Assembly: GCA_973895155.1 (NCBI GenBank)
Contig: OZ316894.1
Span: 11,277,892 to 11,341,891 of the forward strand
DNA from: Marsupella aquatica
Taxonomy: Eukaryota > Plantae > Marchantiophyta
Direction: 5' to 3'
DNA: 64,000 nt
Within the stretch, counting starts at the first letter, position 1; every line of letters begins with the position of its first letter. The notes beneath the pieces were generated by a model that worked only from the letters and a program-made list of their open reading frames with translations, did not search any database and was not told the DNA's origin. Below, one piece after another: positions 29,298 to 64,000 of the stretch. Position numbers and translations under genes: made by a program.

Positions 29298-29301
29298 AAG
29301 G

Positions 29302-29318
29302 AACCCCAATTTAAGGAA
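29302..29318 (+). repeat. Left TIR, AACCCCAATTTAAGGAA
   Basis: Exact reverse complement of 50335-50351. Confidence 0.92.
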
Positions 29319-29518
29319 TATTGAAGTATTAGATTAATTCCAATTTTATCTAAATATTATTAGTTAATGAATGATCAACCTCTTTAACATTTGGTGGGAT
29401 ACTCAAAAACTAAAAATATTTTGTTGCAAGATCTTTATAACAATGCATCACTAAATGACATCAAGTACCTCTTGATCCATGTACAAATCCTTAATTAAAC
29501 TGTCATTCATTGTTTCAA

Positions 29519-30096
29519 TTGTCTATTTAATTATTATAGGGTTGAATACAAAAAAGATTGACACGCACCAGGGTGCGTGACCTACAATCATAGTAAGTAC
29601 CACCCTTTAATTAGTTAGTTTCTTTACAACAATTAATAGGATTGTTGTATATTACAATGTCTACTCGACATTCATTTGAATGTCAATAATATCATGCCTT
29701 AATATCACCAAACTAAGGCCCCACTAACTAATATTATATCTTAAATAAACTAACCAACTAACTAACTTGTCTATTTAATTACTATAGGGTTGAATACAAA
29801 AAAGATTGACACGCACCAGGGTGCGTGACCTACAATCATAGTATCACCCTTTAATTAGTTAGTTTCTATTGCTTTGACTCAATCAGGCATGGAACCATAT
29901 AAAATCAGAAATCATTGAAAGTTGAGTTCACTTGAAGGTGTAACTATAATTATTATTTATTAATAGGATTGTTGTATATTACAATGTCTACTCGACATTC
30001 ATGTGAATGTCAATAATATCATGCCTTAATATCACCAAACTAAGGCCCCACTAACTAATATTATATCTTAAATAAACTAACCAACTAACTAACTTA
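29519..30096. repeat. Subterminal duplicated blocks (A-B-A-x-B) with palindrome variant ACGCACCAGGGTGCGT
   Basis: Block A at ~29519 and ~29767; block B at ~29633 and ~29959. Confidence 0.85.
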
Positions 30097-30189
30097 GACA
30101 ATAAGACTTGCCTAAACTTGAGTTCTCTGGCTACTACTATTTTGAGTTGCCTTTTAAACTGTATGCTAAACTACATGCTTCATTACTGT

Positions 30190-33100
30190 CTAGGATTTGT
30201 CACTTGCTATGCATGTCAAGAGATAGTCTATTGCCTTGGCAGCAACATTCTTTGGAATTCCTACCAGCCCTGTCACTGGTCCTTTGCGTGCTTTGAAACA
30301 CCACAAGGCAGAGGAAACATCTATTGTCTCAGCTTCCTTGTATATTGGAGCTGGATCACGTTCCTATTCTTATCCCAAGAATCTACCCACCGCTCTCTTG
30401 GCTGCCAGTCTGATTGACCACGTTGCTTCTTTGCCATAAATGGTCTAAACCACTCAACGCCACATACATGAGTAAGAAGGTTTTGTTCATTCACTGGTCC
30501 TTCTACCACATCTGTAACAACTAACCCCATATGGATGGGATAAACATCCAGGTCTGAGTCGTCCGGCCGTACCAACACATAACAGCCCTTCACAACATCA
30601 ACCCTAGGGTTAAAACTCTCAGGAGGTTTATCTTTTGCTGGTCCCACATAATCCACTGTTGCCTCCAACTCACATGCCACATTTTGATATTCTGGTGGAA
30701 CGTGCTCTCTCCATATTGATAAAGGCCAAAACCCGTATTCCAAGTGGTGTGCACCTTCAGGTTCATATTGCACCTGCTCACCCTGTAGAGTATCTACAAT
30801 GTCATTCCAATAATTTATGAGAGTTGTCCAACGTCGCTTTGGTTCTTCCTCTTTTGTTCGCTTTAGAATAAACTCAAAGAATGACACATGCTTCTTCAAC
30901 CCTGTCAGCACTTCAGGAAGCATTTTCAACTCCATCATTGGTAGCCGTTTGGGCACCCCAATTGGGATGTGAGGACTTTTGTCATCTTTCCATGACCACA
31001 TTTCAATACCTTCCTTGGGTAACCATCCCTGATCAGTTGATTTCATTTTGTATTGGAAGCATGGCATACTATCATGACAAACATAGAACCTAAACAGCCT
31101 AGGTTTTAAATGCCCCACCAATGCCTCAGGGCCCTTCAACATGAATGGAGCTAAGTAGTTTTTGAAATCTGGGACCTCCTATAGAAAATGTGGGACTGCA
31201 TTGGGTGTCCTTGCTCTCATGAACAAGGACATTAACTCAGGCAATGAGTATGTGGGGTTATGCATCATAGACTCTGAAAAATGCTCGAACATACCGTCAA
31301 TGTCCTCATGAGTATGCCCAACCACCATAAAACCAAGATGAACCTCTTCAAACACCTCCCTTGCCGTCAACAATGACAAATAAGCCATCATATATATGTT
31401 CTTGTTGTTTGAGGCACAATTATCCAGTTGTAGCTTCAATACTCGTGGAAGGGGCCTGAACTTTGGTGCCTCAGGTGCTGCATCACAATGTAACAATCTC
31501 AGAATGCTTTAAAATAAAACCCTAGTCAGACCCTAAACCCCAATTTAGGGTTTAGGGTTTAAACCCTATTAATGAAACCTTGGCTAAGAGGAGCAACAAC
31601 TACACAAAGTAGAGTGTCAGTGTGTGTGAGCTTATATTATTAAATAATTATAAATTAAAGGATTGTGAGTAAAGTACCTACGCTTGAGATGTAGGCAATG
31701 TCATCCTCAAATGCTCTAAGGACACTTGCCTCCAAGATATCTTTCTCCCAAAAAGGAGGTCTTTAAAAAGACTTGTCAAGTCTGGCCCCTCCACAAGTGA
31801 TTTGATCATTGGATTTGGGTTTTCCAACATCCTTAGTATTGAATCAATTGACCCAATAGTGATGTTGACATCACCTGGCCACACTCCAACATGATATTGG
31901 GCTATGGCCTTGGGACCATGACCATGAGTAAGGATACCAGTGACAGTGACGATAATTGAGAACTTTTGGACACCATCCACATGCTTAGGATTGAAGGGCA
32001 TTCTTGGGAGAGCTGTCTTTGAATGATCCATCTTATCATGAATAAGGCATAACACTTCCTTTGGATGATGGATGGACTCATATCTCCAGGTATGATAGCA
32101 CATTCTTTGCTGTGTGTGGTCTTGGTGATGTTCCTCCTCATCACGCCTTAGGCCCTCTAACTCTTCCTTAGCTCCTGTAAGGTTTGCTTTCCGTTGAAGC
32201 AACTCACTACAAGTTGTACATTTTGAAAAGTTGTTGCCCTTTTTGTGACGCGAGAACTCCCTGAAATACATCTGATGTAGATGACTCAAGGTGGGTTGGG
32301 AAATTGGAGGAAGACCAGCCTCCTTATTGACAACATTAACCCTATTTCTAATATTCTCCCAAGTAAGATTTGTTGGCAATTCCCTCAAAACCATCCTTGT
32401 ATTATCTGCCATGGTTCTCAACTTGGCTGGATGATGATCAGCTGCCTCCTCAATAATCTCTTTCATTGACATGAACGCTTGAGATACTTTCTCGGACATA
32501 CGCCTTTTTCCAGCATTACCATGGGTACCTATGTTCATTTTAGCCATCACAGTCTTCTTCAAGGCATAAAATTGAGTCTTTCCTCTTGAATGAATGATTC
32601 TCCATGCCTCCAAGCACAATACTTTGCCCTCCACTGCTAGAATCCTTTCTCCAGTACCCAAGTGTATTGTATTTTTAATAGCCTTGATTTCCTCCTCCTT
32701 GCGCTCCGCAAAATATTTTGACCACCACTTTTGCCTAATTGCCATAGCCAAGTTGCGGTCCAAATATTGGCAACAATGTTCACTACAACAGTCCTTAGAT
32801 GTGTCTCTTCTGGATGTCTAGGAAGATGGACTCTTTCTTTTCCTACTTTTATGGACGTAGGACCGCTTGCCACTTGTTGGAGATGTGTTCCCTCCCACAG
32901 CTTGCCTGATGTTGTGGAAAGACAACAAGTTGCCATCCTTGGCAATGAGTTGGTCCATCGACCAAGCTTTTAAGCAATCTCTATGCTTCAGATGATCTAT
33001 GATAGCTCCCTCGACAAAATCGTTGATCAGAATTCCCACATGTGTATTCCCAAGGGTGACATCCCCAAGCTTCACTATAGGATCTAGAACATGTATAGTT

Positions 33101-33550
33101 GCCACTGCAAAAATCAACTTGTTCTCATCCACCACCTTTACAGGCATGCCCATCCACAAGGCCTTTGGTAAAACTACTTCCACACCAGACCGACTCTCAT
33201 TATGGTTGTTCCCATCAGAATTTTGATTGACTGGATCTTGATCATCACCAACATTGCCAAACACATCCTCCGATTCCATGGGAGCTCGAAAAAGCTTATT
33301 CCTTTCCCATACAAGGTAACCCCCAATCATGTCCTTCAAAAGTTTGCCATCTTCGCATAGAATGGTCTTGTAAAAAACTTCCTCCAATAGAAGAAGACCT
33401 CTGTCCGCCCCAAGAGGAACATTCTGATAAACCCTGGAAGGATCAAGACTTATCACGCGACCTTTTCCAACCTGTTTCTCACGTATGCCTATAATAACTT
33501 GTCCGTCTTTCCTGATCCAGATTGTCAATGTCACCATAATAATTATGATC
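30190..33550 (-). pseudogene. Sola-like DDD transposase, two exons, disrupted
   Basis: ORFs 32818-33558 and 31678-32763 share a frame across one TAG. Intron 31677-31478 (GT..AG). ORFs 31179-31496 and 30321-31142 share a frame across one TAG. Motifs: CC..HCC, VLCLEAWRIIH, FSKCTTC..H, LIHDKMD, LQLDNCASNNKN, FMVVGHTHEDIDGMF. Frameshifts near 31750 and 30365. Confidence 0.8.
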
Positions 33551-33582
33551 CTGCACATCAGAGAATATCATTGTAAGCGTAC

Positions 33583-34243
33583 AGTCCTGTCACGTCCGTC
33601 AACTTCACTGCATTATCCCTAAACTGCACGCGATTGGTCGCGTGACCCTAGAGGTACCACACATACCGGCAACAGACTATGCATGGTCCGTCAATCATTT
33701 CAAGTGAATGAGAACGACCACAATCGATTACGATCAATCATTTCACATCCACTCAGAACAAATGAGTGGACAATACCAGTTTACCAATGAGTGGACACTG
33801 GACAGTCAGTAACTACCGAGGACTATAATTCTAATAAGCGCCAGTAAAAAATCCGTGAATTGCATTGTCCTGTCACGACCATCAACAAGTAAGCAGAATG
33901 TAGTCAATGCACTGCCCTGCACGCGACTAGTCGCGTGACCTTAGTCAGAGGGTGTAGGGATAATAGGGTCTACAAAGTAGAAGCTAGAAGCCTAGGCCCA
34001 AACTCTAGCTCGTACTTGGTACTTCATAAGTAAGATACGATTGCGCATGAGACAGTAAGATACAATTATGGATCTGAAGGCATCACACATACCGGTAACA
34101 GATTATGCATGGTCCGCCAGTCATTTCAAGTGAATGAGAATGACTACAATCAATTACGAACAATCATTTCAACTCCACTCAGAAAAAATAAGTGGACAAT
34201 ACCAGTTGACCAATGAGTGGACACCGGACAGTCAGTAACTACT
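33583..34243. repeat. Duplicated block upstream of the transposase, each copy with the 16-bp palindrome
   Basis: ctgcacgcga..gtcgcgtgacc at 33628 and 33921; cacacataccgg..ggacagtcagtaactac at ~33658 and ~34084. Confidence 0.85.
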
Positions 34244-34560
34244 GACCCTCATAAGCAATCTCAGTACTTCATTAGCAATCAGTATTCCCGGGGTGGTTGC
34301 CAAACGTGAAATTAAAGCCATAATTAGAGGACAACTGAACTTCCCACCAATTCTAATACGCGCCAGTCAAACGCGCACTCTCTTCTAGAAACCACTATGT
34401 ACAATGACTAGTGGAGACTAAACAGTATAAAGCATTGAGATGATCCCTACTACTCATTCCCCCACGCATTCCACTTTCTGGCTATTGGATAATCTATTCG
34501 CACATCAACTCTCTCATTTCCAATTCTTAGTCTCGGTCTGAATCTCTTGTTTGAAGGGCG

Positions 34561-35105
34561 ATGACTACTCCGCTGAGCTCAAAGAATGAGGATGTTCCGA
34601 CGGACGATTCAGAAGATTCGACATATCAAATTCGTGGTACTCCTTACAGAATGTGTCAGCGATGGAATATAATGTTTACGGTGACTAAATCGGGTCAAAT
34701 GTTTTGTGAGAGACGACATTGTTCGCCACATTTGTCGATGGAAGATCAGATGGAGAGCAATCCGACATAGATGACTACAAAGATGGCATCAGGGGAGAAG
34801 TTAAAGGGCAAAGCCCTCGTCAAATCCGTTTTGGGGGGGGGGAGAAGTTGAAGGCCAAAGCATGCGCTGAATCCATTTCGGGGGAAGCAGCAGCAGACGC
34901 TAAGACAGTCAAGAAGGAGGCCAAGAAAGTGGACGCACCGAAGAAAAGGCAATTAGAGATGAACAAAGATTCTGATTTGTATTACAAAAAGAGCAAGCCA
35001 AGAAAATCTATGGACGTTAGGACTTGGGCAAAGGAAGAATTCCTGGATTCAAGGGAATCCACACCAAACACCGATGACTGGATGCCTTCATCTTGGAATG
35101 ACTGA
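34561..35105 (+). pseudogene. Small frameshifted cargo ORF of unknown function (Cys-containing N-half, Lys-rich C-half)
   Basis: Overlapping ORFs 34561-34770 and 34719-35105 look like one gene with a frameshift; TATAAA at ~34426. Confidence 0.4.
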
Positions 35106-35349
35106 CTCGATCGAAGTCTACAATATTTTGAGTAGTCAAAGATTAGAACTACAGATTCAAGAGTAGTTCAAGTTAGAACTTGTTATAGATACTGTGTAGC
35201 TTAATTTTGTCCCGTGGAAAATAGTGTTCGAAAGACCAGGTCAGTTAAATTCCTGGATAGTGCTAGTGGATATGGATTCCACATCCGAAGTCCTTCAGGA
35301 TCGATGTAACCATTTTTGCAATCAAGGAAAAATCATCCACAAGATTCCT

Positions 35350-36395
35350 CTGACCTCTAAAACATTAACGCGACCGGGCGTGTGATGAAACAAAGACGTT
35401 GGTTTTAAAATAGATTTCTGGCCAATTTGCTAGGCTGTCGACTCCAATAAACAATATCAAAAAGACCTGAGATAAATTGGTTCACGTGACTATACACGTG
35501 ATGAACTACATGTGTAACCGAAAAAACAGGTCATCCAACTAACAAGTTGAGATCAGTCAGATCTGAGAAATAAAGCACGATTACGTTTAAGAGTGTAGAG
35601 CTTTTGCTGACCTCTAAAACATTAACGCGACCGGGCGCGTGATGACACGAAGACTTTGGTTTTAGAATAGATTGCTGGCCAATTCGCTAGGCTGTCGACT
35701 ACAATAAACAATATCAAAAGACACGAGATAAATTGGTTCACGCGATTGTGCGCGTGATGAACTACATGTGTAACCAAAAAATCAGGTCATCCTACTAACA
35801 AGTTGAGATCAGGCAGATCTGAGAAACAAAGGGCAATTATGTCTAAGAGTGCAGAGCTTTCGCTGACCTCTAAAACATTAACGCGACCGGGCGCGTGATG
35901 AAACAAAGATCTCAGTTTTAAAATAGATTTATGGCCAATTCGCTAGGCTGTCGACTACAATAAATAATATCAAAAGACACGAGATAAATTGGTTCACGCG
36001 ACTGTGAGCGTGATGAACTACATGTGTAACTGAAAAATCAGGTCATCCTACTAACAACTTGAGATCAAGCAGATCTGAGAAATAAAGGGCGATTACGTCT
36101 AAGAGTGCAGAGCTTTCACTAACCTCTAAAACATTAACGCGACCGGGCGCGTGATGATACGAAGACTTTGGTTTTAGAATAGATTTTTGGCCAATTCGCT
36201 AGGCTGTCGACTTCAATAAACAATATCAAAAAACCTGAGATATATTGGTTCACGCGACTGTGCGCGTGATGAACTACATGTGTAACCAAAAAATCAGGTC
36301 ATCCTACTAACAAGTTGAGATCAATTTGATCTAAGAAATGGCCCTCGATTACGTTTCGTTTCGCTAGGCCGTCGACTACAATAAACAATACCAAA
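35350..36395. repeat. Tandem array of four ~256-bp units, two palindromes per unit
   Basis: ctgacctctaaaacattaacgcgaccgggcg starts at ~35350, 35607, 35863 and 36119. Confidence 0.95.
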
Positions 36396-38954
36396 ATGTA
36401 CGGACAACTATAATTGAGCGCCATACAATTTTAGACTAGAGAATTCATTCGGATCCTCTACTAGTACTTCTGATACATTGCTTCTGTATTGGACTTGAAA
36501 CACGGATTGATCAAAATCGGAGTGAGAAATTGGACCATAACTTCATTGACTCAATTCATGCATTGAATGCGTGATTTAAGGCAACTACTCTCCTCATTTA
36601 TTGCAGAATTAATGCTTATTGATACTTACAAGTTATTCAGTTGCGTGTGGTCTCAGCGATGTTGGCGGCAACCCTCCTCCCAGCCAAGCCTCTTCCTTCC
36701 AGCGTAGCCTCTTCCTTCCAGCGTAGCCTCCTCCTTGTCCTAGCCAACTAAGCCTCCTCCTTCGAACTCCAATTTCCTTGAGTATTGTGACCGAATCCCA
36801 CCACCAGAGAATGACAACTTGTTGATCGTATCGAGATCAAAATCCTCGACCAGACAGTGATTTCAGAATAGCCTCTCTTTGTTGGTCCGCTAGAATGTTT
36901 CGATGAATGAGGCAGACTATGGAGGTTCTAAATCTTTATCGTCTCGCTTCGTCGCAACTCTCTTTCGCTTGATCGGATGTGCCCTCCCCAAGAAGGTGAT
37001 ACAACAAGAACTGCGCCAGCGTTGCTTGAATGAGCTTCGCCTCCGACTGGAATAGTTGAATGATCCAATCTGCTCCACCTCAAATGTGCCTTGGATCAGC
37101 CTCCGCTGAGAGCCTAGCTAGTATCCTGGTCAGGAGAAACTGAAAATGAAGAATGATCCGTGAGCAATGAGATCAGTCTATTGACTCCATGAAGGATGTG
37201 TTCATCTGGAATCAATTTTGATTTTGAAAATTGGTTGAGTCTCCAGTCGTGAGAATCATTGTACAGGATTGATTTTGAATATCGGTTCTCCTCGACCGTG
37301 AGAATCATTTTACGTTGTTTAGAGTTTGGGTTTGAATTGGCAAGATAGAGAATGGAGTACGGATCCGGATCCGACAGTCTCCACTACCAAAATGGAATGA
37401 TTTTGAAGTTTGCCTCACTCCGATCGTGAGAAAGTTGTCATTCGTTCACATTTTGGATTTGAATTGGCAGATATAGTGAAGATACGGATCCGGATCCGGG
37501 GGTCCCCACTAACAATCTTTTGCAGTTGCATAATTACCGGTTTAAATTTCAAATTGGCGATCAAATAGAAATCTCCTTTAGTACGGCAAATCAAAAGGAT
37601 TTTGGTAATCTTTTCTTCACGATTGCATAGTTTGTTGAGTCAATGGTGGAGTGTACAAAGATCATCTGGAACCTTCTTGTCGCTAGGCTGTTATTAGGGT
37701 TATGCTAAAATGATATCCTAATTAGTCCTTCCTTAGTGTCGGTGCCCACGGTCTCAAGTTCACTGTTCATTGTTGTTGTTTCTCGCTCCCTAGACTTTTG
37801 TGCGCCTACTCTCGTTGCTCTCGCTCTCGCTCTTGCTCCTGCCCTAGATTTCATTTTTGTCTTGTAGCTTGTTCGTTGTGGTCAGGTGCTTGTCGGCGCA
37901 TTGCAGCTCTTAGCAGTTGTCGATTGTTTCGGTCAGGAGCTCGTTGGTGTGTTGCAGCTTGCATTTACAGCTCGTATTCACTTCTAGTTTGCTCAAAGGG
38001 ATTCTTAGGAGCTCAATGGGTTTGTTGCAGCTAGTTTTTGGGAGTGCTTGTATCAGCTCGTGTTAGCCAATTTTAAGCTCATATCAGCTTGATCAACGTG
38101 TTTCAGCAGCTCGAACTACTTTTTGGCAGCTTGTTTTAGCTCCTTTCATTCATCATTCAGGTTTGTTTAAGCTCTTTCAATCTTCAAGTTTAGTGCACTT
38201 TTATTCATGCTCACTTTGTCTATTGACATCTTTGATTGTACTTCTGGAAGAGTCTTATTAACTCGACATAATGAGTTCCTTAGCATTAAGCACATGTTAT
38301 TCAATTGGCAGCAGCGAAGCTCTATGTATAGAAGTATAGAAGCTGTGTTGTTGTTGCTTAGCATATTAATATCTTCAATCTTATATTTACTTTTTGGAAT
38401 GCCGCAGCAAGGTCTTCAAGTGCTTGGACGTCAATCTCTCAGACGATTACATCAATTTTTCAGAATTCAGGTGCAATTTCTACATTATCTGCTGGTGTTG
38501 ATTGTTGTTTGCTAAAATTTCTCTTGATTGTTAAGCTGAGTTTTCATAATGCAGTTTGTCTGTAAACTCAAATATGTCTGAATCATACAAACTCACTAAT
38601 TAAAATACAACCTGAATCGTCTTAAGTAAGTCATTACAAACCTGCACGCTGTGAATTTAATCATATAAACTCTCATGTTATGTTACACTGAATCCTTTAA
38701 TTGACAAATACAACCAGTAGACTGCTAAATTGAATCATCTTAGCTGAATCATTCTCTAAATTGAATTCCTTGCAATATGAAAACTTCTGATATATAATAG
38801 TTTCACAATGAAAGAGCTCAAACATCTGAATTATTGTAAAGTTCATGAATAAATACAAATGAATGAAATCATGCTTACTCGGATTTCCCTGTTCGTAGGG
38901 GTCAGTAATCACAGTTGTATCACTGTATTATCCTAGTGTCCAAAAGTTATTTGA

Positions 38955-39702
38955 GCTGTTGATGCGACCAGTCGCATGAGAAGATTGTGAGGTTCCATTT
39001 AGGATCAGTTGACGCGACCAGTCGCGTCTGAGGTAGCTCTCTCATTGACTGGTTCTGTTAGAGGAGGTAAGGTTCCATTTAGTTTAGTTGACGCGACCAG
39101 TCGCGTGTGAGAAGGAAACAGGATAGATTACTGAGCGCGTACCATATCCAAATCTCCAAAAGGAAGGTTCAGTGGATATAGTTGTTTAGGTTCAGTTGAC
39201 GCGCTCAGTCGCGTCTGAGGTAGCTCTCTCATTGAATGGTTTTGTTAGAGGAGGTAACGTTCCATTTAGGATCAGTTGACGCGACCAGTCGCGTCTGAGG
39301 TAGCTCTCTCATTGACTGGTTCTGTTAGAGGAGGTAAGGTTCCATTTGGGATCAATTGACGCGACCAGTCGCATGTGAGAAGGAAATAGGATAGATTATT
39401 GAGCGCGTACCATATCCAAATCTCCACAAGGAAGGTTCAGTGGATATAGTTGTTCATGTTCAGTTGATGCAACCAGTCGCGTCTGACATAGATCTCTCAT
39501 TGACTGGTTCTGTTAGAGAAGGTAACCTTCCATTTAGGATCAGTTGACGTGACCAGTCGTGTCTGAGGTAGCTCTCATTGACTGGTTCTGTTAGAGGATG
39601 AAGCAACATTAATGATTTGTCACGTTGTGACCTAAAAAAATCACAATCTTCCAAAGAATTGTTTAATATACATTCTGATTTGTAGACGCGACCAGTTGCG
39701 TG
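38955..39702. repeat. Array of ~80/~108-bp subunits, each led by GTTGACGCGACCAGTCGCGT
   Basis: Nine motif copies at 38962, 39012, 39091, 39199, 39279, 39359, 39467, 39547 and 39686. Confidence 0.92.
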
Positions 39703-39742
39703 AAAATCATCCCTGGGATGTATCATTTGGCTGAAAAGAGTC

Positions 39743-40296
39743 ATGGGGGAACCTAGTCTGGAGAGCTTCAGATATCTATGCCCAATATTTGACGTTTTGG
39801 ACAGAAGCCAAGATGGTCTACTGGCGGGATATTCTGTAATTGTTGAAACACTACTACCTGGACTTCCAGATTTGATTGTCGCGGAATTGATATGGCCTCG
39901 GATCAAGGAGTCATTGAATTCCTTGGTTAATGCATGAAATTTCTCAATAAAGGAATTGGATGAGTTTGTAGGACTATCTTCAATGTGCCGCAGATGGCGC
40001 CACCTTGTTGGGAATACCTATCTTTTGGGTGTAATCAAGTTGAGTTTATTAGATTTGGCTTTCCCAGGAAATCCTACTAAACCGATTCAAAATGAGTCTC
40101 TCTCATCGACAGTTCAAAGTTTCTTCTAGAAATACCCAAGAATTAAATTCATGGGGTCAATGTCCAGAGATCTTAGGGAACTCTTCACGAAGACTTACGA
40201 TGCTCTTCACCCTCTTGAAAAATGGAAATTTACAGTTAGATGCCACGAAGTTGGATACCTTGAGGGTGACATCTACGCTTTTAAGGAATGCTAGTT
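39743..40296 (+). pseudogene. F-box-like module 1 (disrupted)
   Basis: LLPGLPDLIVAELIWP..(*)..LSSMCRRWRHLV. Confidence 0.65.
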
Positions 40297-40359
40297 AACT
40301 TACGCGACCGGGCACGTTGTATGTCTTCTAACAATGTTTTGTGATATGATAAAAGCAGG

Positions 40360-40887
40360 ATGAGCCAACTTTTGAATGAGGCTCGAGATTTCCTTTCATC
40401 TCATGAAAGGAAACAGAAAACAATATGGGATACGCTGGATGAAACCTCCTCTAGTCTCATTGGAGGAATACCAGATGTTTTGGTCATTTCAAACATTTGG
40501 CCAATACTCTACAAACACTTTATTTCAATTGAAGGATTGCGTCGATATCGACACCCCGATAACAATTTGGTTATCGATAGGATCCGAGACCTTATTCGGC
40601 TTGGAGCTTGTAGCAAGAAGTGGAACTTTTTAGTTACAAATACAAGGTTATGGGCTATCCTCAAACGAGCAAACCGGATTGTCAATGACACAAATGAAGC
40701 ACTTTACTACATACCCAAAACTGATGAGTTGGAGTTTGACTCAATCTGTCGAGTTATTCAAGAGGATATTTCTATGTTCCCAGAAATATCTGTTCTTGGG
40801 ACTACTACTTCTGACAAAATCGTATTGTTTACGAACAAATATAACTATTTAGATGCTCAAGGAAGAACGAGATGTTCTAATCGAAAG
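40360..40887 (+). CDS. F-box-like module 2 (exon)
   Basis: LIGGIPDVLVISNIWP..LGACSKKWNFLV..RLW; phase-0 donor at 40888. Confidence 0.65.
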
Positions 40888-40973
40888 GTTTGGTAGATTT
40901 TCTCAGAATCTAGGTGGTCCCAATTCTTAATGGATAGGTTCTTGTTCTTAATCTTTTCCATATTATGTTGCAG

Positions 40974-41491
40974 TCCTTTGACATGAATCAAAAATCTCAT
41001 CGTCAAATGATGATGAAGCGCATTGCACGTGCAAAGGTTATGAACCAAAACATGATATGGAGTCAAGCTGAAAACCTGATACCCGGTCTTCCAAACGATG
41101 TTGTCGAGAAATATATTTGGCCATTAGTCAAAGAGTTTTTCCACTCTCGTGAGAATTTGTCAGATAATGCGATTAAAAATCGGGTCATGGACTTGATCGC
41201 CATTCAAACAGTCAATAAGAAGTGGTGCCACATAGTTACTTATAGTAGTACTTGGGCGACGGTCACCTTGGTAGCTTACGACTTCACTGATAGACTAGGA
41301 TATGAATCGCTTCGAAGGAATTTGACTTCACGGAGTGTAGCATTCAAATTTACAGAATCCATCATAACTCTCCCGCCGCTGGACATTCTGAGTGGATTTG
41401 AAGGATCTGAACTTGACACGTTTAGGAACCTTTGGTTTTTGTTAGATGAAGATGAGCAAAAGGATTGGGTCAGGATAAACGTTCCTAAAAT
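40974..41491 (+). CDS. F-box-like module 3 (exon)
   Basis: LIPGLPNDVVEKYIWP..IQTVNKKWCHIV..TW; acceptor AG ends at 40973. Confidence 0.7.
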
Positions 41492-41569
41492 GTAATTTGG
41501 CACGACACGACCATGCGCGTGTTAGTATTTTATAATAAATGTTTAACTTTCATATTTGTCTATTTCAGA

Positions 41570-44500
41570 ATGGATCCTACCGGAACTTCAAAGCGGAAAA
41601 GAGACTCGTCTAAAGCTACTTCTCAAAAGAAAGCCAAGACAAAAATGACTCCCGCGGAGACATTCATACTTGCATATCGAGGAAAGTCAATCAGAGAGAG
41701 AACAACGGAGACAAAGAGTATCCATCTCTTTGATTCGACTGAGATATTCGATCTTGGAATAGTCGTTCGCAATGGGGCTGTCCGTCTTGTGGTGGCAAAA
41801 AATGATAAAGCTACAGTTTTGGAGAGGTCGCAAATTTTTGGGTGTTTCTTTGAGAAGAACATGAAAGTTAAAGAGTGTACAGAGGGCTTGGTTATGCTAG
41901 TCAACGACGACCAGCAGGAGGACAAAATAAGCATTTGTTTGGATCGAACGCAATATGTAACCTTCAATCAGCCCAGAATCAATGATCTTCTAGGTGCAAG
42001 GCACGCCTTGGAAAAGGTTACTAGTATGGAATATCCTTCCAATCCAGAGGGATCAACGGGAGATTTGATTTGTCAATACATTATTGACGTACTTGAGTTT
42101 CAGAGAGTTAGTTTCAACCAGGGATTTTGCTTGGGAAAGGCCCCCCCAGTTACCAAGGTTGAAATATACTCGGTGGAGAATCTTCCGAAAGTAATTACCT
42201 CAACAAATGTCGGGGCTCTGTTCGATTCTTTCCTCAAAGAATATAGTGTTGTGAATATATTTAACAGCAAGTCATTTTTTGTTGAGACATCACGTTGTCA
42301 TCTTGCACCGGACCACATCAAGTGCCGAGAGTGGAATCAGGATTTACACAAATAGGCTAAAGAATTCACTCCTCTCTCATTCGGCTATAAAGTTTAAAAA
42401 GCGATGTTGCTTTTTAGTCCCTGTGAAGTGGGTTCAGTCGGAGGCCGACAGAGATCCCGACTACAATGGGACACCCTACGATTTGGCGCTAACAGAGGAG
42501 GACATTATGACCAGTCATTTTTGGATACTCGGAGGCCAGCACACAATAATGGCGTACAAATTGCTGAAAAAGGATGACAAAGTCAGCCAAGTTGTACGAG
42601 ACGCATGCGGTACTGTAGAAGCTGTAATGTTTTGGGCAACGCTCAACAACAACAATAATGTTCATTTGATGGGACTATCGAAGGCTCTGAACCACTATCA
42701 TCAAACATCAATCGAAGGACAGTTTCTCACCATTGTACGACAATGTCGTAATATCTGAACTCATTTGGGCGGCCTGGATCACATTATCATCATCCAAATT
42801 GGAAGGTATATAAATAACCTTCTTCGATCACATTATCGTTTAAAATTTTGTTACGCAAACCGGCGCGTCAATCTTAGAATTTTTCTCACGCAAACGGTCA
42901 CATCAATCTTAGAATTGTCATGTTTCCATTGTTTTTCAGGTATTTATGAGAGCTACAAGTTTTGTTTGCCCATGGGCTCAAATGGGGAAGAACGCAATAA
43001 TGAAATTTGGAGAATTGGCTCCATTTCTCTTTACAATGGAGGACAAAACATTCAAGAAGTGGATGGAGGTCTACAAACTATCAAGGACAAGAGAGCTTGT
43101 AATTTACAACGGAATTTTATAGAGGGACGCCGTCAAAATTGTGGATAATCCCTGTGCTTATCATCTTCTGAAGAAGACGTTCCGTTCTTGTCAAGGATGC
43201 TCGGACTCGGTTCTTTGAAAGGCAGCGGAATATATGTTGAGCGGAAGACTGTCTATACTCAAAAACCAAAGCATCAAAGTGAAATCTGGGGGCTCTGTTG
43301 TTGTCAACGACCAGCATGAGTTTGGAGCAATTCTGTATAAAGAAGAAGACAAAAGTTGAGTTTGAGATTTTATTATTGAGTAAACTCAACGGGGACACAT
43401 CCACCCGGACGGAGCTGCAAATTCTGACAGATTCAGTGCGGAAATTGCGGGTCAAAGGAATGATTGATCGCTTTAAGCTTGACAAGATGGTGCTGAAGCA
43501 GTTGAGAGATGCGTTGAGTGGTTATCTGAAGAAGTGCTTAAATGTAAATATTAGTAATGATAATTTGTTGAAAGAGATCGACCCGATATTCCACAGGTTG
43601 GTGGAAGGAATACAGAAATTAGTTGAGAGTCAAGGAAACCAACTAGTGCGACCGGTCGATGAGAGGCTAAAATTGCAATCCCTGTAGGATATACAAAATG
43701 TTGGGTTTGTAGACTGTATCATACGTGAAGACAAGAACCTTGCAAGCTTGATTTATTTTGATTCCTCATCAATGGGAGATTTGCGTCCGCCAAATTGCTC
43801 ATTCTATGAGGGGTTATTTTGTGTGCTACTAGCGAGATAGGGGCAAAACCACACCATGTGGTTATTATTGTAGCCTCTCTCGTTGAGTCTTATTTAATCA
43901 AATGGGATTTAGGGAAGTACACACACTACGTTGTTGTCGATAGCCATTATATTCAGAAGCGGCCGAAGGAGAAGAAGCTTATTGTAACCTACGCTTTTCA
44001 TAGCTTGGCCTTCAGCACAATGGGCGATCCACAAGCCCTCGAGTTCCAATTGGTCTCCAAATATCAGATTGAGAAGATAGCCAATTTTGAAGAGAGCGGC
44101 GAGTACACGACACCTTCCCCAGAAAAGATACTTCCATTCTTTGAAAGTATTGTTAGTCAATTCGTCCAATGTGGGGAATGGGCTATATGCTTTGGCGAGG
44201 GAACCAACTTGATCCAGTGCTTAATGGTAAGTTTTGAGATTTATATTTTGGGGTTTTAATTTTAAGATTGTTTAGATTTTTATATTCTCAATTAATATTG
44301 TGAACTAATTTCGGCTTTTTTTACAGGATGCTAGATCCAATGTAAAATATTACTGCCCTGTGGCAACGCATAGGGAGTTATCTTGTTTCTTGCAACACAC
44401 CACGGCGACAATTGATACAATGCTGTCATTAATTGACCCAATACGGGCTAGTATAGAAAAATGTATAGATAAATTAATGAAGTACCGTCCATCCGTAACT

Positions 44501-44648
44501 GCTCTCAGGGCTGATGTTTTGGATGTCCTCCACGAACAACATATCCCTGATAATATTTGTAATCAATTATTGCAAGAGAATGCCCTCTCTGAAGATTCTG
44601 ATCGATTGTACATTCGACCAACGAAGTACCCTCATGGGCCAATCCAAG
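41570..44648 (+). pseudogene. NLS + ParB/Srx-like domain + helical region + degenerate amino-MTase-like domain (exons 41570-42805, 42940-44226, 44327-44648)
   Basis: KRKR..KKAKTK; CHLAPDHIKCREWNQD..RLKNSL..FWILGGQHTIMA..LSKALN (ParB-like GxH motif); ASLIYFDSS (motif IV position); PEKILPFFESIVSQFVQCGEWAICFGEGT (motif X-I position); several stops and frameshifts. Confidence 0.55.
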
Positions 44649-44776
44649 GTAGGTTACTTTTGAACCCTCTTACTTTTTCTTGTGTCACGCGAACATGCAC
44701 GTGGACATTCTTAACATTTCTTCTCACGCGAATATGCGCGTGAGTCATTCTTATCTAATGATCTGATTTTATTCAG

Positions 44777-46372
44777 ATCAAGTTGACTGCTGCTTCAATG
44801 TTGAGGATGCAGGGAGCAATGGTGATGCGGATGGTGAGGGGGAAGGTGACGTGGAAGGTGACACGGATGGGGATGTCAATGACCAAGATCCAGAGTGGAT
44901 GACCGATATGCAGAACGACATCGGAGATTCCGACAATAGCGAGGAAGAGAGTGACGGAGAGGAGATGAAGGACGCTGAGGACGCTGATGAAGAGGACGAG
45001 GAGATGGAGGGTTCTGAGGACGCTGAGGACTCTGATGAAGAGGCCACACAGGAGCCTCGACATGAGGCGGACCGAGAGGAGGCGGCCCGGCAGGAGGAGG
45101 CCAGAGAGGAGTCGGCCTGGCAGGAGTTGGTCTGGCAGGAGGCGACCCGGCAAAAGAAGGAGGCGGCCCGGCAGGAGAAGGCCCGACAAGAGGCGTCTCG
45201 GCAAGAGGAGCTTCAAAAGAAGGAGGTGACCCAGCAAGAGGAGGCCTGGCAGGAGGCGTCCTAACAAGAGGCGGCCCAGCAAGAGGCGGCCCGGCAAGAG
45301 GCGCTTCGAAAGAAGGAGGCTAAGAAGAAAAAGGCGGCAGCTAGAAAAGCAACTGCTGCAAAGAAGAAGGAAAAAGCCAACGCTGAGAAAGCCCAAGCAA
45401 AGAAAGCCGAAGCTGAGAAAGCCGAGGCTGAGAAAGCCCATGCTGAGAAAGCCCAGGCTGAGAAAGTGGAGGCTGAGAAAGCGGAGGCTGCGAGAGTCCT
45501 TTTAGTGACAGAGGCAAATAGGGCCAAGGCGGAGAGTGTGGCGGCTGAGAGGCTGCTGGCCGAGACGATGGTGGACGAGATCAAACAGACCGCAAGACCA
45601 GAGAGGGTGGAGGCGGAGAAGTTGAAGGCGGAAAAGGTCGATTCCGCAAGACTGGAGAGAGAAGAAGCCGCAAGATTGGAGAGGGTGGAGGCGGAGAAGG
45701 TGGAGGAAGTGAGGAAGGAGGCCGAGAGGGCCAAGGATCTTTCGCTTATTCCTGAGGCACAACATCTACCAAAAATAAAGTTGAATTTGAAGAAGCCTTC
45801 TTCACCCTCAGTTGCAGTTAAGAAGAAAATATTAGATTATTTTCTTCGCCCGGAGTTTGAATTTAACGATCCACCCTTAAGTACGGTCTCATTGGATGAT
45901 TGGAATAAACATTCACCAGAGCAGCTCCAAGTCCAGGTTGTCTTGGCTTTGCAATATTGGAAGGGTCTTTTGATTACCGAGGAGAAGACTGCCACTGCAT
46001 CCAGAATGGAGACAATCATCAATAATGTCTGCTTTTCCAAAAATTGAGTGCAAGACCTGGGAACGTCTTTGGCACCAGACTCGGCTCAAGTCGTTAAGAG
46101 ACTAACAGCTGACTTGACGCGACCGGGTTCGTGGTCTCAACCCCGATATACTGCAGAGGTCACTCACGCAGAAATTGTGGCACCGGATATTTTGGAATTG
46201 GATTCCTAGCCTGTGGAATATTTAAATCAAATGCCACAACCATTCGAAGGTCTTTCCGCCTCATCGCTCCAACCTTCGCAAACTGGTCCGGTGGAGCGAT
46301 CACTGCGGTCTCGAGGAGGGCTGAAGGATGTTGTTGCAAAGGAGGCACCCAAGAGATCAGCTGCAAAAACAG
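44777..46372 (+). pseudogene. Acidic low-complexity and E/A/K/R coiled-coil exon of the cargo gene
   Basis: In phase with the upstream exon; D/E-rich tract, then (RQEEA) and (AEKAE) repeats; in-frame stops at 45262, 46045 and ~46207. Confidence 0.7.
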
Positions 46373-46373
46373 T

Positions 46374-46470
46374 CTATTTCAATTATTATATTTCCTGAAG
46401 TATCATACCAATACGCGTTTTAAAGTTTTGATTGATATTTGTGGCGTTGATCATCACTCTCAAAAATGAA
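46374..46470 (+). pseudogene. nad9: Mitochondrial nad9 fragment (NUMT)
   Basis: LFQLLYFLKYHTNTRFKVLIDICGVDH.SQK resembles plant mt Nad9 LFQLLxFLKxHTxTRxQVLIDICGVDYPSRKRR; AT-rich; out of frame with the surrounding exon. Confidence 0.85.
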
Positions 46471-46645
46471 AGGCCGGATCCACCCAATCCAAAGGTCATT
46501 CGCAAGCTATAAGCTTAAAGTTTCTATTATAGCCGTCATTATTTTATTATTGATTTGTTATTGTTTCTGTTTTCTGAGGTAGAACACTTAGGCTACAACC
46601 TCAGTACGTTATTTGAAGGCGTACTGAAATCTCTATTTTTTGCAG

Positions 46646-47434
46646 TTTTTTGGAAATTTGGCTAGTCGAATAGATCAATGCCTTGATCCTTCTAAGGATA
46701 TGGAAGAGCTATTGACCAAGTTCTTACAACACTCGATCAAGAGGAAACATATGATGTGTCTAAGACCGCGCGAGTTGCTCACCGATGATATAATTAACGC
46801 TTATTTGAGTTTTCTCGAACTGATTCTCGATAGAGTTGGAAAGTCAGACCTTGTCAAATTCTTCCAAACACACCATTTTGAGCTTCTCTCCATGGATCCT
46901 ACCATTTTTGATGAGGAGAGAACAACTTGGACAAAGGAGTTTCCGCTAAAAATCAATGAATACGACAAACTGGTCTTTCCAATACACAATGATGTGAAAG
47001 AATATTGGTCATTGGTAGTTGTGTATCCGAAGGAGAAACGGCTCGAGTACCTAGATTCTCTAGTTCATAATCGACAAAATTCTGGGGTGCTAGAAATTGT
47101 TGGGAAGTATTACGCCGACAAAATTGGCTGGAGTACTGGTGTCAACTTGGATCTCTCAGGTTGGGAACGGATATATCGGAATGATATTCCTCACCAGAGT
47201 GACAGCCACAGTTGTGGTGTGTTTATCTTGAGATACGCCAAGTGCTTGTGTCAAGGAAACAAAATTAATTTTGCCACGGATCAAATTGAGAAATTCCGTA
47301 GGGAGATAGTCTTGTCATTATTTGACATGGACTTTCGCAAGCCAACGTCCGCAAATAACCTAGTTACCGGGATCCGTGCTGCTATGATTGACATTTTTGG
47401 CGGAATTCCAGCACTGAACGACCGTCTTGTACAT
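46646..47434 (+). CDS. Ulp1/peptidase C48 SUMO-protease domain exon; catalytic His replaced by Tyr
   Basis: LRPRELLTDDIINAYL, FFQTHHF, LVFPIHND..EYWSLVVV, YLDSL, PHQSDSHSCGVFIL. Confidence 0.85.
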
Positions 47435-47520
47435 GTAATACACTTCATTTCAGTGTCTCTCTTTATAGTCACGCGACCGTTTGCGTTATAAACTTATTTT
47501 CATTTCTTAATGTTTTACAG

Positions 47521-48424
47521 AAGCCTATCCCAAAACCCCCTGATCGAGTATCAAAGGCACCAGTCTGAAAGTCCGGTGATCGTCCGGAGGCGGGAAACAA
47601 ACAGACCGTTCTAGTACGTTCTCCAAACCCCGCGACATCAAAATCACAGGTACAGATGACGCCTAATCCATCAGCAAAGAAGTCACCGGTTCAGAAGAGA
47701 CTTGTAATTTTTGATCTGAATCGGTACTTATCTGGTCAGAGAAGATCAGCCCTGGGATGCCCATTCGGTCAAGGGGTGTGAGACAGATGCACAAGGTTAT
47801 CTATCCAAGGCCTGATTTAATGGAATTTCTTGAGAAGTGGCAGATCTATACGACATTGTGATCTGGTCATGCATGTTCAAACAAAATATTCTATCTTGTG
47901 TAAGGCTGATACTTCGACCCAAAGTTTTGAAACGTATTAAATTTATATGGGGACAAGAATCAACTCGACCTATTGGGAAGAATAATAATGACATCCCCTT
48001 ATTTGTGAAATGTCTCTCCGACATTGCCACCGATATTAAAGATTACAACATCGAGAATGTCATTCTTATCAATGATGTTACATATAAGACGAGCCTTAAT
48101 AACTTCTATTCATCGCTGTATCCCGATGCATATTCTGGGCTCGATGATGACCTATTTTTTAGAAAGAAACTATATCCATATCTATGCGACATGTCAATTG
48201 ACAAGTTGACATTCCGCGAGCTCCTTAGTGGATATGGGATTCCAACGTTCTCTCAAGAAAATCTTGAGAGAGATTATATTGATAAGACGAATCTTTGGAG
48301 GAGAAATGTGATCATTCGTAATCAGGGGAATAAAGACCATTTAGAAAAGTTTGACGAATATATGAAATACTTATCTGCCAAAAAAGACCGTGCTATAGAA
48401 GCCCGGGATAAGTCCGATAAGTAA
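47521..48424 (+). pseudogene. FCP1/NIF-like HAD domain 1
   Basis: KRLVIFDLNR, YDIVIWS, KFIWGQE, PLFVKCL, ENVILINDVTYKTSLN; disrupted near 47566-47830. Confidence 0.75.
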
Positions 48425-48555
48425 ACGTTTATTGTTTATTATCAATTATTATCTATAAATTGATTGAGATTGAACTTTATATTTTGGGAGTGACGCGCCC
48501 GGTCGCGTGGTTGTTTGCAATTGCATAATATGATAATCGAATTGTTCATTTATAG

Positions 48556-49180
48556 GTGTCTAAGTGGAGTAGGTCGCGTAAACATCTAGTTTTAGGACTA
48601 GAAAACTTCAACTAGAAAGCTCTGTTTAAAAATATACTCCTCAGCTCAAGTCGACACCCGGAATTCATATCGGATCTCTATGTGTCGTTCCGAGGCCGCA
48701 TCTTCATGATCTTATAAAATTCTGTTATGATCATTTTGATGTGATGGTCTAGTCTATTATTGACGACAAACTGGTTTATCAGATACTTTCAGAAGTGTTG
48801 TCGAGCACGACCTGTTGCAACTGATATATGTGTTCACGCGGGATCATTGCTGGAATCTTGGTTATGTGAAGAAAAATTATAAGACTGTTGTCATCAAATC
48901 TATCGAGAGACTACGTGATATGTTTCAAGATTATCGACCAGAGAATATAATCCAGATTGATGCCTATCCTTCCCATACATGCCAGACAGCTGTATGCGGA
49001 TTATTGTTTGCTATGTTGTTTCAAGGATCGTTGGATGATGTCTTTTTTGGAGGGATGACCTCATTCCATATTTACGAAAGCTATCAGATTCAGGGCTTTG
49101 TCTTGCGTTCGCTAACAAGTTTGATTATCCCATCTGGTTGATTAGAAATCTACATCGAGATTGGGATCTGAATGAGGATA
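48556..49180 (+). pseudogene. FCP1/NIF-like HAD domain 2 (degenerate)
   Basis: KHLVLGLENF, RPHLHDLIKFCYDHFDVMV, YVFTRDHC, VIKSIERL, ENIIQIDAYP; frameshifts and stops. Confidence 0.65.
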
Positions 49181-49355
49181 TATGGGAGCATCTGTACGTG
49201 CAGAGACATGTGGATCAAGTTCTTATCAAGCACTTCAACAGACGTCACTTATCAATGGCCAGAGTGTAGAGGATGTTGTCTCTGTAATATGTGACGCGAC
49301 CATTCGTGTGACTACATCCATACGGGCTCATGCATCTTCTTGTGTTTCTCTACAG

Positions 49356-50045
49356 GAGATTCATTGCAGCAGAGAAAATGGGCTCATAGTTTTAGACATG
49401 GAGCATCTACTCTGTTACACTGCACCGCATTCTCGACTAATGGCGGTCTCAACTAGAATTCGGATTGAGAATATATACGTTTTTCCAAGGCCTCATCTTC
49501 ACGAATTCTTGAGATTCTGTCTTGAGAATTTCGATGTAGGGATCTGGGCCTCTCTTGGGAAGAACCTTTTAGATCAGATTTTAGCATCTATTTTTACTGC
49601 GATGGAAATGGTCTCATTTAAGTATATTTGGGATCAGTCTCATTGTTACTTATGCGATGGGGTGACATCAAATAAACAGATATTTTTGAAGTGTTTTGAG
49701 AAGGTTGGAATTTATACAAAGGCGTATTTGCAGCAAAATATAATGTTTATCGAATTCGATGCATTTCATGCTTGTTTAGATCCTGTTGTTGGATCATAAT
49801 TTCCCCCCAAATATTTTGGGTCGGTCAACGACAATTTCCTGATTAACTTGTTGATTCCGTATCTTAGCAAGCTAGCAAAATCTTGTGAGCCACTTGTCAT
49901 TCCCAATGGAAGAGATTATCCTGATTGGTCAGTTAAATCTATTTTTAGAAATTATGATTATAATCATACTCTATGGGAAGACCCTGTGATTCAGAGGCAT
50001 GGAGATAGATATCTAGTAGAGCAATTTAACAGACGCCCAATTTAG
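49356..50045 (+). pseudogene. FCP1/NIF-like HAD domain 3
   Basis: LIVLDMEHLL, FPRPHLHEFLRFCLENFDVGIWAS, FKYIWDQSHC, IFLKCFEKV; stop at 49797-49799. Confidence 0.8.
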
Positions 50046-50334
50046 GACGCTTCCGAAATAATAGTCGGCATGAGATCAGATTAATTTGTATTGTCGTTCT
50101 AGAAATGATTTGTAAACTCCTTATATACTGGTTATCATATATAAAGGATCTCAGAGATTTATTTCTCTATTGTTATTATTTGCGTGAGCATGTCTTTTGG
50201 TCCCGTCAAGTTGGATTGGTTCAAATGTGACATTGCAGTCATTTCAGGGTTTCACGCGCAGCCACACGTCATGTCGCCCCCTTTTTATTAAAATAATAAT
50301 ATTTAGTGATTTTCGGAATTTCCAAAGTTCGGTT

Positions 50335-50351
50335 TTCCTTAAATTGGGGTT
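50335..50351 (-). repeat. Right TIR, TTCCTTAAATTGGGGTT
   Basis: Exact reverse complement of 29302-29318, followed by TSD AAGG. Confidence 0.92.
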
Positions 50352-51305
50352 AAGGGGCTCCTCCGGATTTCCCACAAGCGACTCCATCCACTCCATCGTG
50401 CTATCCTCATCCGGGTTCTCTTCTATAGTGGTTTTGGCTAGAGGTTCAGACGGTGGTTCCTTTGCAAGACTCCCCAAGATGGTAGTTGCAATCCTCCGTA
50501 TTTCCATGGTGAAGGGTGGCCCTGATTCTTCAGTTTCAGGAGAGGGGAGGAGCCCTTCTGACCTGGCCAAGAGGAATGACACCATCAAGTGAACGCTTCC
50601 TCCGGACTTCAGACTTTTAGGATCCATGGCCAATGTTTTCTTCAGCCCAAAGTACCACCATCCGTAAGTGTGACTTGGGTGAGCTTTGATGTCATTGGCA
50701 CTAGCCAGTTGATCTCCACTCACCATTCCAGATTGCCCCCAGCCAAGCACCCGTTGGTGTATCTTGGCCACCAACCCCTTGAAGGCTGGTTCCTTGAATG
50801 ATGAAAGGGGAATGTTGGTCACGGAGGTGGGATCTCTGACAACCCTAGCTAGCTGCTCCAACGTAAGTATCCCCGGTGGCTCCGTTGGCTGAAAAGTGAA
50901 ATCTTGGTTGTCCAAGAACAATAGCTTGGCCAGCTCCGTATTGGGAATCAATTTTTGTGTGCAATGAAAGTATATCCCCTCCGTACGGAACTCTAATCCT
51001 GCCTCCACGTTCCAAGTCCTACCATGGGGAATCCTGATCTCTACCCGAATGAAATTGGTGAGACGTGTGGCCTGAAAAATTTCCTTGCGTTCCTCCATCA
51101 TCTTGGCAGAAGTCCGCGGGTAGACTCTTTGGAAAACCCTCCTCTCAACCGATGCGCTATGGGTACTGTATGGTCCGGTACTCATGGCTGTATGTCTCTC
51201 TTCCCCCTCTTCAGCAATTTGCGACGCAATGTAATCCCGGTAAGCGGCCTTGTATCTACGTATATGGGCCCTACTGAACTCCGGTCTTTCCAATGACGAC
51301 CTCAT
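50352..51305 (-). pseudogene. N-terminal 318 codons of the host-element ORF (accessory TE protein, family not established)
   Basis: Open frame from ATG at 51305 to the TSD; continues in frame at 29297 once the transposon is removed. Confidence 0.7.
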
Positions 51306-61170: not shown

Positions 61171-62030
61171 AAGGCCAACGTTGTGGTACAAGAAAGCATC
61201 ATAATAAGGCCACATTTCCTCCAAAGACCACAGTAAAATCACACCAGGTTAAATCAACACCGCATTAAGGCTCCCTAACCTTCTTGGGGCCCCGTACCCT
61301 ATCCGTCACTAATCCCAATGCTGCTGCCTGCAAGCCCGCGCATCCGTCAATCACCGTTCTGGCGCACTTGAAACGTATTAGCCCCGATCGGCGACGAACG
61401 GAAAATTTCCGTCCATTTCAAATTTCATGGCCTTTAGGGCGCGGGACATGCTTACCCGGCCTCCAGTCCACCTCTGTTTTTGTCACATGTTCTCATTCTC
61501 AGTTGTTATCATTGTGGTCCCGCTGCTGGAAATACTCAATGTGCAGCGTTGTGCGTTCTGTCGTCATATCATTTTCTAGCGCGCGCGAGCATTCTGCCCG
61601 AAGTTTGCAGAGTCTTGAGCTCTTGTTTCTTGTCTCCCATCCGCACTATCAAATGCGATTCGGCCTTTTCAGTTAAGATTGTCAGTGTTTTTCCACTGTG
61701 CATATATGTTTTTACTTTTTCTTCACCACGGATTATGTTAACAATGTCTTTCGTATTAAGTTCTAATTTGTTTCACTAAGCACCTCAGTAGTGTTCAGCG
61801 TTCTGTACTTGGCGCCTCTGCCCCAAGCAAGAGAAGATCAAGATCAGGTTACTGGCAACGTTGCAGTGCACTTTTTGCATGTGTGGACCCTATCACTATT
61901 GAGGAGCATTGATCGTGGGACAGATTGCCTCCGTCATCTCTTTCCATGTAAAACGTGTTAGAACAATGGTGTTTGTGTAGTCGTTCTACCAGTCCCACAC
62001 AGTTATTGGATGTGACGTACCCTAGTTGTA

Positions 62031-63956: not shown

Positions 63957-64000
63957 GTATGTGGTTTGCTATTTGGGGTATGCCTGGCCATTTTAGTAAA

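Follow-up and report, generated by a model that had tools for sequence, protein, structure and literature searches.

Why would a single mobile element carry about thirty copies of one short palindrome in its repeats and predicted introns? This question is raised by a 64,000-nucleotide stretch of the liverwort Marsupella aquatica (contig OZ316894.1, positions 11,277,892 to 11,341,891; hereafter the window, to which all coordinates refer), in which sites of the form ACGCG-N6-CGCGT, 31 clear copies and one weak copy, lie inside one giant DNA transposon. At a probability of roughly 0.4, we propose that the palindrome is the landing site of a ParB-fold protein encoded by the element itself, by which active copies would be marked as self and less silenced.

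Sequence and distribution of the palindrome

The 32 sites listed in an initial annotation of the window were re-read, and all were found to carry the sequences given there. The strict form ACGCG-N6-CGCGT was detected 13 times exactly and 11 times with one mismatch, every one within 33628-50269, and the absence of a full site from the remaining 43 kb was confirmed at zero to one mismatch. The description of a 16-bp palindrome stood for its two conserved 5-bp arms but not for the full consensus as written, ACGCGACCNGTCGCGT, which is matched by only 3 of 32 sites (39012, 39091 and 39279). Conservation by position, from outermost to innermost, was 1.00, 0.97, 0.92, 0.84, 0.80, 0.59, 0.65 and 0.62, with weaker preferences for T(C/G) outside the arms and for (A/C)(C/A)(C/T) inside them. 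Among 28 arm mismatches, 26 were C-to-T or G-to-A changes at CpG, a signature of decay through methylation. Mirror symmetry was seen in three variants (29563/29811, 35484 and 38962), for which CpG decay alone is a plausible origin.

A symmetric weight matrix was run over the window only and its hits were ranked by bits. Ranks 1 to 31 were all listed sites, rank 32 was a site outside the element at 62035 (15.9 bits) and rank 33 was the site at 50254 (14.4 bits), with the next position at 8.4. When one context group at a time was left out of the matrix, the best site of 13 of the 14 groups outscored every outside position; 50254 failed this analysis (8.0, equalled by two outside positions) and is therefore graded weak. 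The sole outside weak site, 62035, sits in an open frame of what appears by eye to be a MULE-type transposase fragment with introns (62016-64000), two fragments of which had no Pfam match.

Arms with at most one CpG transition were found 23 times in the element, compared to a mean of 0.027 and a maximum of 1 in 300 second-order Markov simulations. When spacer lengths of 0 to 14 were scanned, 23 hits were obtained at a length of 6, one at 8 and none at the other 13 lengths, with none outside the element. Watson-Crick pairing at the variable positions was not in excess (35 observed versus 33.8 expected, p=0.41). The fixed 6-bp spacer and the inner base preferences, together with this lack of excess pairing, thus suggest recognition of double-stranded DNA by a two-fold symmetric protein and not a hairpin, and the site geometry points to a binding site for a protein dimer.

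The flanks of 15 representative sites were no more alike than random positions (mean identity 0.31 versus a null of 0.29; the maximum of 0.42 equals the null 99th percentile). Tandem duplication thus accounts for copy number within arrays and not for the spread of the sites through unrelated contexts, as had been claimed.

Viral contigs were also scanned for the motif, and the 36 loci recovered (L001-L036) each had a single site in unrelated context. In 33 of the 36, one similar palindrome is set within a longer imperfect inverted repeat (3001-3020), once per locus, and is likely an unrelated phage hairpin.

Location of the sites within the element

Four repeat blocks (248, 293, 256 and 80/268 bp) hold 21 of the 32 sites, and each of six separate duplications within the element includes a site. 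In the cargo, located on the strand opposite the transposase, introns were predicted from GT-AG ends and frame continuity; GT...AG was checked in six short AT-rich gaps, and two donors (near 40293 and near 49265) are uncertain. By this approach, 7 of 10 intron-like gaps were found to carry a site and 3 were not, in agreement with the claim that most short cargo introns do so. Intron-like DNA makes up 11.2% of the cargo span and accommodates 7 of the 8 independent site groups located there (p=1.6e-6). The exceptional site, 46117, is half-perfect and within an open frame.

The initial annotation further held that the palindrome marks the whole transposon, including its introns. Sites were indeed found in predicted introns, repeats and subterminal regions, but 'whole element' is an overstatement because the transposase gene has no site, nor does its intron. 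Site-free stretches of 3,817 bp (between 29811 and 33628) and 2,710 bp (between 36252 and 38962) were detected. Of the sites reported for both subterminal regions, the left pair (29563/29811) is present in variant form but the right site (50254) is only weak, and the terminal repeats themselves are without a site.

Retention of the sites in other copies

The ends of the element are defined by a terminal inverted repeat (AACCC...GGGTT) that matches at 17/17 positions. Removal of the element together with one AAGG yields a 415-codon frame with 0 stops, whereas the two alternative frames have 22 and 23. The frame thus interrupted (minus strand, 29004-29297 plus 50356-51305) is part of a different sequence that appears to be repeated and matches no Pfam family. 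Contigs of four public sequencing runs (X1-X4) cover all 30 bins of 31000-50999, and sequencing depth falls beyond 50343, past the right end, in three runs. In run X2, collapsed contigs at a depth near 1,400 occur beside divergent ones at 22-41, which suggests that the family has tens of copies. The copy in the window is interrupted by stops and frameshifts.

Conservation of the site at equivalent positions in other copies was upheld by these runs, in which the arms at 41507 and 44699 could be read. At 41507, three of the four runs showed the arm-completing G at full depth and the remaining run showed it in 2 of its 4 contigs, and the arm base at 44699 accounted for 88-100% of depth in four of four, such that the family restores the arm and other copies carry better arms than this copy at both positions. 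Contigs of 80-90% identity span site 41505, mostly with CpG transitions, and the family majority has perfect arms at this site. In 40 of 54 rows, non-CpG changes were found at 1 of 10 arm positions of site 41505 with no indel in the site, compared to changes at 16 of 61 positions and five indel places elsewhere in the intron (a hand count of numbers too small to establish purifying selection). In addition, three contigs in each of X2 and X4 match through the end of this site and then diverge at 41521, which is suggestive of a sister subfamily in which the site is retained and the remaining intron sequence is different.

Relative to neighboring bins, the array at 39004-39670 was covered about six times deeper in two runs, X1 and X3, and about twice as deep in X2. 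In X1, a single contig links the 80/268-bp array to a TTTAGGG-type repeat at 39408. This array may be amplified as a satellite or within other copies.

A ParB-fold cargo protein as candidate binder

The window copy of the candidate binder is frameshifted, and P0001 (418 amino acids), one of the relatives recovered for the region 41570-42758, was folded in its place on a 15-row alignment (mean predicted local distance difference test score, pLDDT, of 71). A repetitive bacterial protein (P0008) was excluded from all alignments. By Foldseek, the first 14 matches listed for the P0001 model were of ParB/Srx type (ParB, PadC, Noc, SbnI and sulfiredoxin; best E 3.1e-3). By VIA-align of residues 226-371, the top 8 were likewise all of ParB/Srx type, the best being PadC (Z 8.1, root-mean-square deviation 2.8, 96 aligned) followed by KorB (Z 7.3). 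Residues 30-173 were PH-like (VIA-align Z up to 5.0). An Atlas search suggested ParB_N as a lead, and PDB sequence searches returned no match. The start of the ParB-like protein (41570-42100) is basic, resembles a localization signal and is common to relatives.

Taken together, these fold matches indicate that P0001, a close relative of the cargo protein, has a ParB/Srx fold. The annotated ParB/methyltransferase product is hence retained in part: the ParB/Srx domain was recovered in the cargo protein family, but the methyltransferase domain was matched by no tool. Self-recognition by a dimeric element protein found partial support in the dimer-site geometry, the confinement of sites to the element in the window, their retention in other copies and the ParB/Srx domain. 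All in all, the ParB-fold cargo protein is probably the binder of the palindrome.

CpG content of transposase and cargo

CpG observed/expected was 0.29 in the site-free transposase compared to 0.77 in the cargo. A similar contrast was found by codon-controlled odds ratios, which were 0.20 and 0.07 for the transposase versus 0.59 and 0.52 for the cargo (p=1.8e-4 and 1.8e-7), with 0.16 and 0.39 for flank frames. This contrast is consistent with the site-bearing part having been protected over long periods in the lineage that transposes.

A self-marking model and its alternatives

In the proposed model, dimers of the ParB-fold cargo protein would occupy the palindromes, about one per kilobase, so that active copies would stay labeled as self and be less subject to silencing. 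Sites would be gained singly in introns and then multiplied in tandem arrays, presumably because coding DNA cannot hold them. The bound protein, perhaps spreading as a clamp, would recruit the neighboring SUMO-protease, phosphatase and methyltransferase-like domains and so oppose host CpG methylation; as each perfect site contains four CpGs, host methylation could in turn switch binding off. Anti-silencing is thus the leading function for the sites, at modest odds. We regard as unlikely the fuller version of this model, a eukaryotic ParB/parS system in which the protein would load at about 30 private sites and spread over 21 kb as part of a spliced anti-silencing machine with SUMO protease, C-terminal-domain (CTD)-type phosphatases and a bacterial-type methyltransferase, with family-specific co-evolving palindromes and CpG methylation as on/off switch.

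Several observations weigh against the proposal. No Foldseek match was below E 0.001, and a Z of 8.1 is at the caution line of the tool. ParB-N domains do not read sequence, a task performed by the helix-turn-helix, a part that is only putative in the cargo protein. The ParB proteins that bind cytidine triphosphate (CTP) have an arginine-containing motif, GxxR; GGQHT takes its place in the window and in all 6 of the relatives that cover it, making canonical CTP hydrolysis doubtful. In KorB, an R117A substitution abolishes CTP binding (PMC11790492). The putative methyltransferase domain, represented by a 139-amino-acid fragment, was matched by no tool; it displays degenerate look-alikes of methyltransferase motifs, and its low-confidence model (pLDDT 52) gave meaningless structural matches. 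CpG retention in the cargo shows no gradient by distance from a site (0.71, 0.85, 0.78, 0.74 and 0.62), and CpG outside the sites is scarce both in the 80-bp array (0.26) and in the left subterminal region (0.14). The contrast between transposase and cargo could instead stem from gene-body methylation or from longer residence of the transposase, the cargo being younger. Finally, the predominance of CpG transitions among the arm mismatches implies that methylation has reached the sites of this copy.

The evidence on site and fold also holds for a ParB-fold protein that binds the sites for KorB-like long-range repression, for condensing the 21 kb for end pairing or for tethering copies. KorB, its second-best fold match, acts at a distance from 16-bp operators, and the absence of a CpG gradient near sites and the presence of sites near both ends and along the element are in line with this reading. 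Less easily accommodated are the site-free transposase gene, the better CpG retention of the site-bearing part, the SUMO-protease and phosphatase domains, which suit chromatin or transcription control, and the absence of a ParA-like ATPase from the 24 element frames scanned with Pfam, which are fragmentary. This reading is the main rival to anti-silencing, possible and on balance rather unlikely. The binder could also be the transposase or another element protein, for which TnpA and the AtMu1 transposase provide precedent, since they bind clustered element motifs and activate their own copies (10.64898/2026.08.24.746577); the transposase gene of our element is likewise flanked by sites. Those proteins, however, bind termini (10.64898/2026.08.24.746577), whereas here the terminal repeats are site-free and sites lie in cargo introns up to 10 kb inside, and ParB-like genes beside inverted repeats are reported with a different transposase lineage (10.1101/2025.02.11.637652). 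We consider this alternative improbable.

We attach very little weight to capture of a host transcription-factor site (LEAFY type III or a CGCG-box factor) for tissue expression. The LEAFY type III crystal oligonucleotide (10.64898/2026.04.13.717636) is a spacer-less 16-mer of similar center, whose central 12 bases match the idealized palindrome at 11, and GCGACC half-sites occur in 16 of 64 half-sites of the element. LEAFY contacts the central G1, G2 and C5 (10.64898/2026.04.13.717636), whereas in the transposon the center is variable and the outer arms are fixed, conservation dropping from the outside in. The type III site was ranked low since its conserved central CCGG is found in only 7 of 32 sites, and two good halves are found in none. 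Moreover, LEAFY of liverworts and most vascular plants is of type I and that of mosses of type II (10.64898/2026.04.13.717636), and the palindrome is absent from the other 43 kb of the window. Equally improbable is that the palindrome acts as an RNA hairpin or splice signal, or is neutral filler multiplied by duplication. Such readings would suit the intronic location of most dispersed sites and the inflation of the count by tandem arrays. The unrelated flanks of the 15 representatives leave duplication an insufficient explanation, however, and sites are also located upstream and downstream of the opposite-strand transposase. The hairpin was rejected because the variable positions lack excess pairing; an Rfam search of 29000-51000 also returned no match.

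Comparison with known systems

The closest likeness to the Marsupella element is with Sola1-1_Ec32 of the brown alga Ectocarpus, an element of 21,549 bp with AACCG-CGGTT termini, a 4-bp duplication and a ParB-methyltransferase gene opposite the transposase, for which self-binding and self-modification by the ParB-like accessory protein have been proposed (PMC12477816). Shared features are a length of about 21 kb, AACC-type termini, the 4-bp duplication and a ParB-like gene on the strand opposite the transposase. The algal element differs in having a 282-bp imperfect terminal repeat, compared to 17 bp perfect in this land plant, and no binding motif appears in the accessible part of its description (PMC12477816), whereas here the palindrome is explicit. 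The liverwort protein begins with a PH-like domain and is accompanied by additional F-box-like, Ulp1 and NIF units, and its methyltransferase is putative, recognized by eye only. Our element probably belongs to the Sola1-1_Ec32 class, with transposase clade and methyltransferase unconfirmed. Sola1 is listed for Physcomitrella (PMC9033089).

Similar to the liverwort element, the 17-19 kb Plavaka elements of the red alga Bostrychia combine a ParB-like accessory protein (PAG3) with tandem inverted-repeat arrays, and own-sequence binding has been proposed (10.1101/2025.02.11.637652). Plavaka differs in its EnSpm-type transposase, in fusion of ParB to a 2-oxoglutarate (2OG) oxygenase and in arrays that adjoin the gene, compared to one site per intron here. 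VANC of VANDAL elements binds element-specific motifs in introns and in intergenic and terminal non-coding DNA, including tandem arrays (PMC5735166, PMC10398659), and the liverwort element is alike in having a short motif in introns and non-coding DNA that is multiplied by tandem repeats. VANDAL differs by a MULE transposase, a 9-base non-palindromic motif and an unrelated binder, and its anti-silencing was shown by experiment whereas ours is predicted. KorB slides from 16-bp OB operators (PMC11790492), and KorB/OB and ParB/parS resemble our case in pairing the ParB/Srx fold with a 16-bp inverted repeat carried by the same mobile element; here, by contrast, the arginine CTP motif is lacking, no ParA was found among the fragmentary frames scanned, the gene is eukaryotic and spliced, and the site sequence is different. 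The layout is like VANDAL/VANC and the fold and site are like ParB/parS, and the element is a member of neither. ParB-linked eukaryotic methylases have been described, and the accessible text reports no such element (PMC4738411).

Gene content of the element

The features of the element are presented in Table 1. By eye, splicing out 41492-41568 would join the third F-box-like unit to the ParB exon without a change of frame, so that the entire cargo may form a single long spliced product. The called frames of relatives extend past the position equivalent to the predicted donor at 42806. The transposase intron includes, at 31531-31560, a copy of the terminal-repeat core adjoining telomere-like repeats. 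A small plus-strand frame (34545-35105) upstream of the 256-bp array had no family match. The Pfam scan of element frames returned no MULE family match, the transposase being of DUF7869. Only one relative is named, and it comes from another liverwort, Calypogeia fissa; no related loci were found in metagenome contigs (queried with the transposase and with the ParB alignment) or viral contigs, searches for longer relatives found none, and plasmid and phage tblastn gave no match.

Table 1. Coordinates of the transposon, its genes and its palindromic sites in the window.
Feature	Position	Strand	Remarks
Left target-site duplication, AAGG	29298..29301		4 bp
Whole element, Sola-like giant DNA transposon, 21,050 bp	29302..50351		Decayed copy of a multi-copy family
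Left terminal inverted repeat	29302..29318	+	17/17 match; imperfect extension to about 70 bp
Two variant sites, 29563 and 29811	29563..29826		In 248-bp subterminal duplication
Broken transposase gene, DUF7869 domain	30140..33567	-	PF25273, E 1.5e-30; no site; CpG-depleted
Predicted transposase intron	31509-31677	-	No site
Two sites 293 bp apart, upstream of transposase	33628..33936		Motif and matrix scan
256-bp tandem array, 8 sites	35350..36323		Two different site contexts per unit
80/108/268-bp array, 9 sites	38962..39701		Upstream of cargo frames
Three paralogous F-box-like units	39704..41492	+	Pfam F-box-like E 0.003 (weak); mutual blastp E 1e-3 to 4e-12
Site 40302	In first gap between F-box-like units	+	Motif scan
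Predicted 77-nucleotide intron, site 41505	41492..41568	+	GT-AG, frame continuity
Exon, PH-like and ParB/Srx-fold domains (modeled)	41570..42805	+	Frameshifted here; relative P0001 57% identical over ParB part
Predicted intron, sites 42853 and 42888	42806..42939	+	35-bp duplication
Helical and methyltransferase-like region	42940..44648	+	Resemblance by eye
Predicted intron without site	44227-44326	+	Inside methyltransferase-like region
Predicted intron, sites 44687 and 44726	44649..44776	+	GT-AG; family restores arm at 44699
Acidic and coiled low-complexity exon	44777..46381	+	Site 46117 in open frame
Ulp1-family (C48) SUMO-protease domain	46647..47434	+	PF02902, E 9e-20
Predicted intron, site 47471	47435..47520	+	GT-AG, frame continuity
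Three paralogous NIF/FCP1-like phosphatase units	47521..50045	+	PF03031, E 5e-11 for third unit
Sites 48493 and 49294	In gaps between NIF-like units	+	Motif scan
Weak right subterminal site	50254..50269		Matrix scan
Right terminal inverted repeat	50335..50351	-	17/17 with left
Right target-site duplication, AAGG	50352..50355		4 bp

Implications

Self-binding by ParB-like genes of giant transposons has already been proposed for Ectocarpus Sola1-1_Ec32 (PMC12477816) and Bostrychia Plavaka (10.1101/2025.02.11.637652). A literature search, in which most subscription papers were not covered, returned no description of this element or motif and no papers on DUF7869. What is probably new is a land-plant case with an explicit, countable and intron-dispersed palindrome. 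The precise 31-fold site, together with intact relatives of the candidate binder, makes the self-binding proposal directly testable. If true, it would represent a second, independently built system of sequence-specific self-marking in plants, beside VANC and TnpA, derived from a bacterial clamp fold, and may offer a tool for targeted chromatin change.

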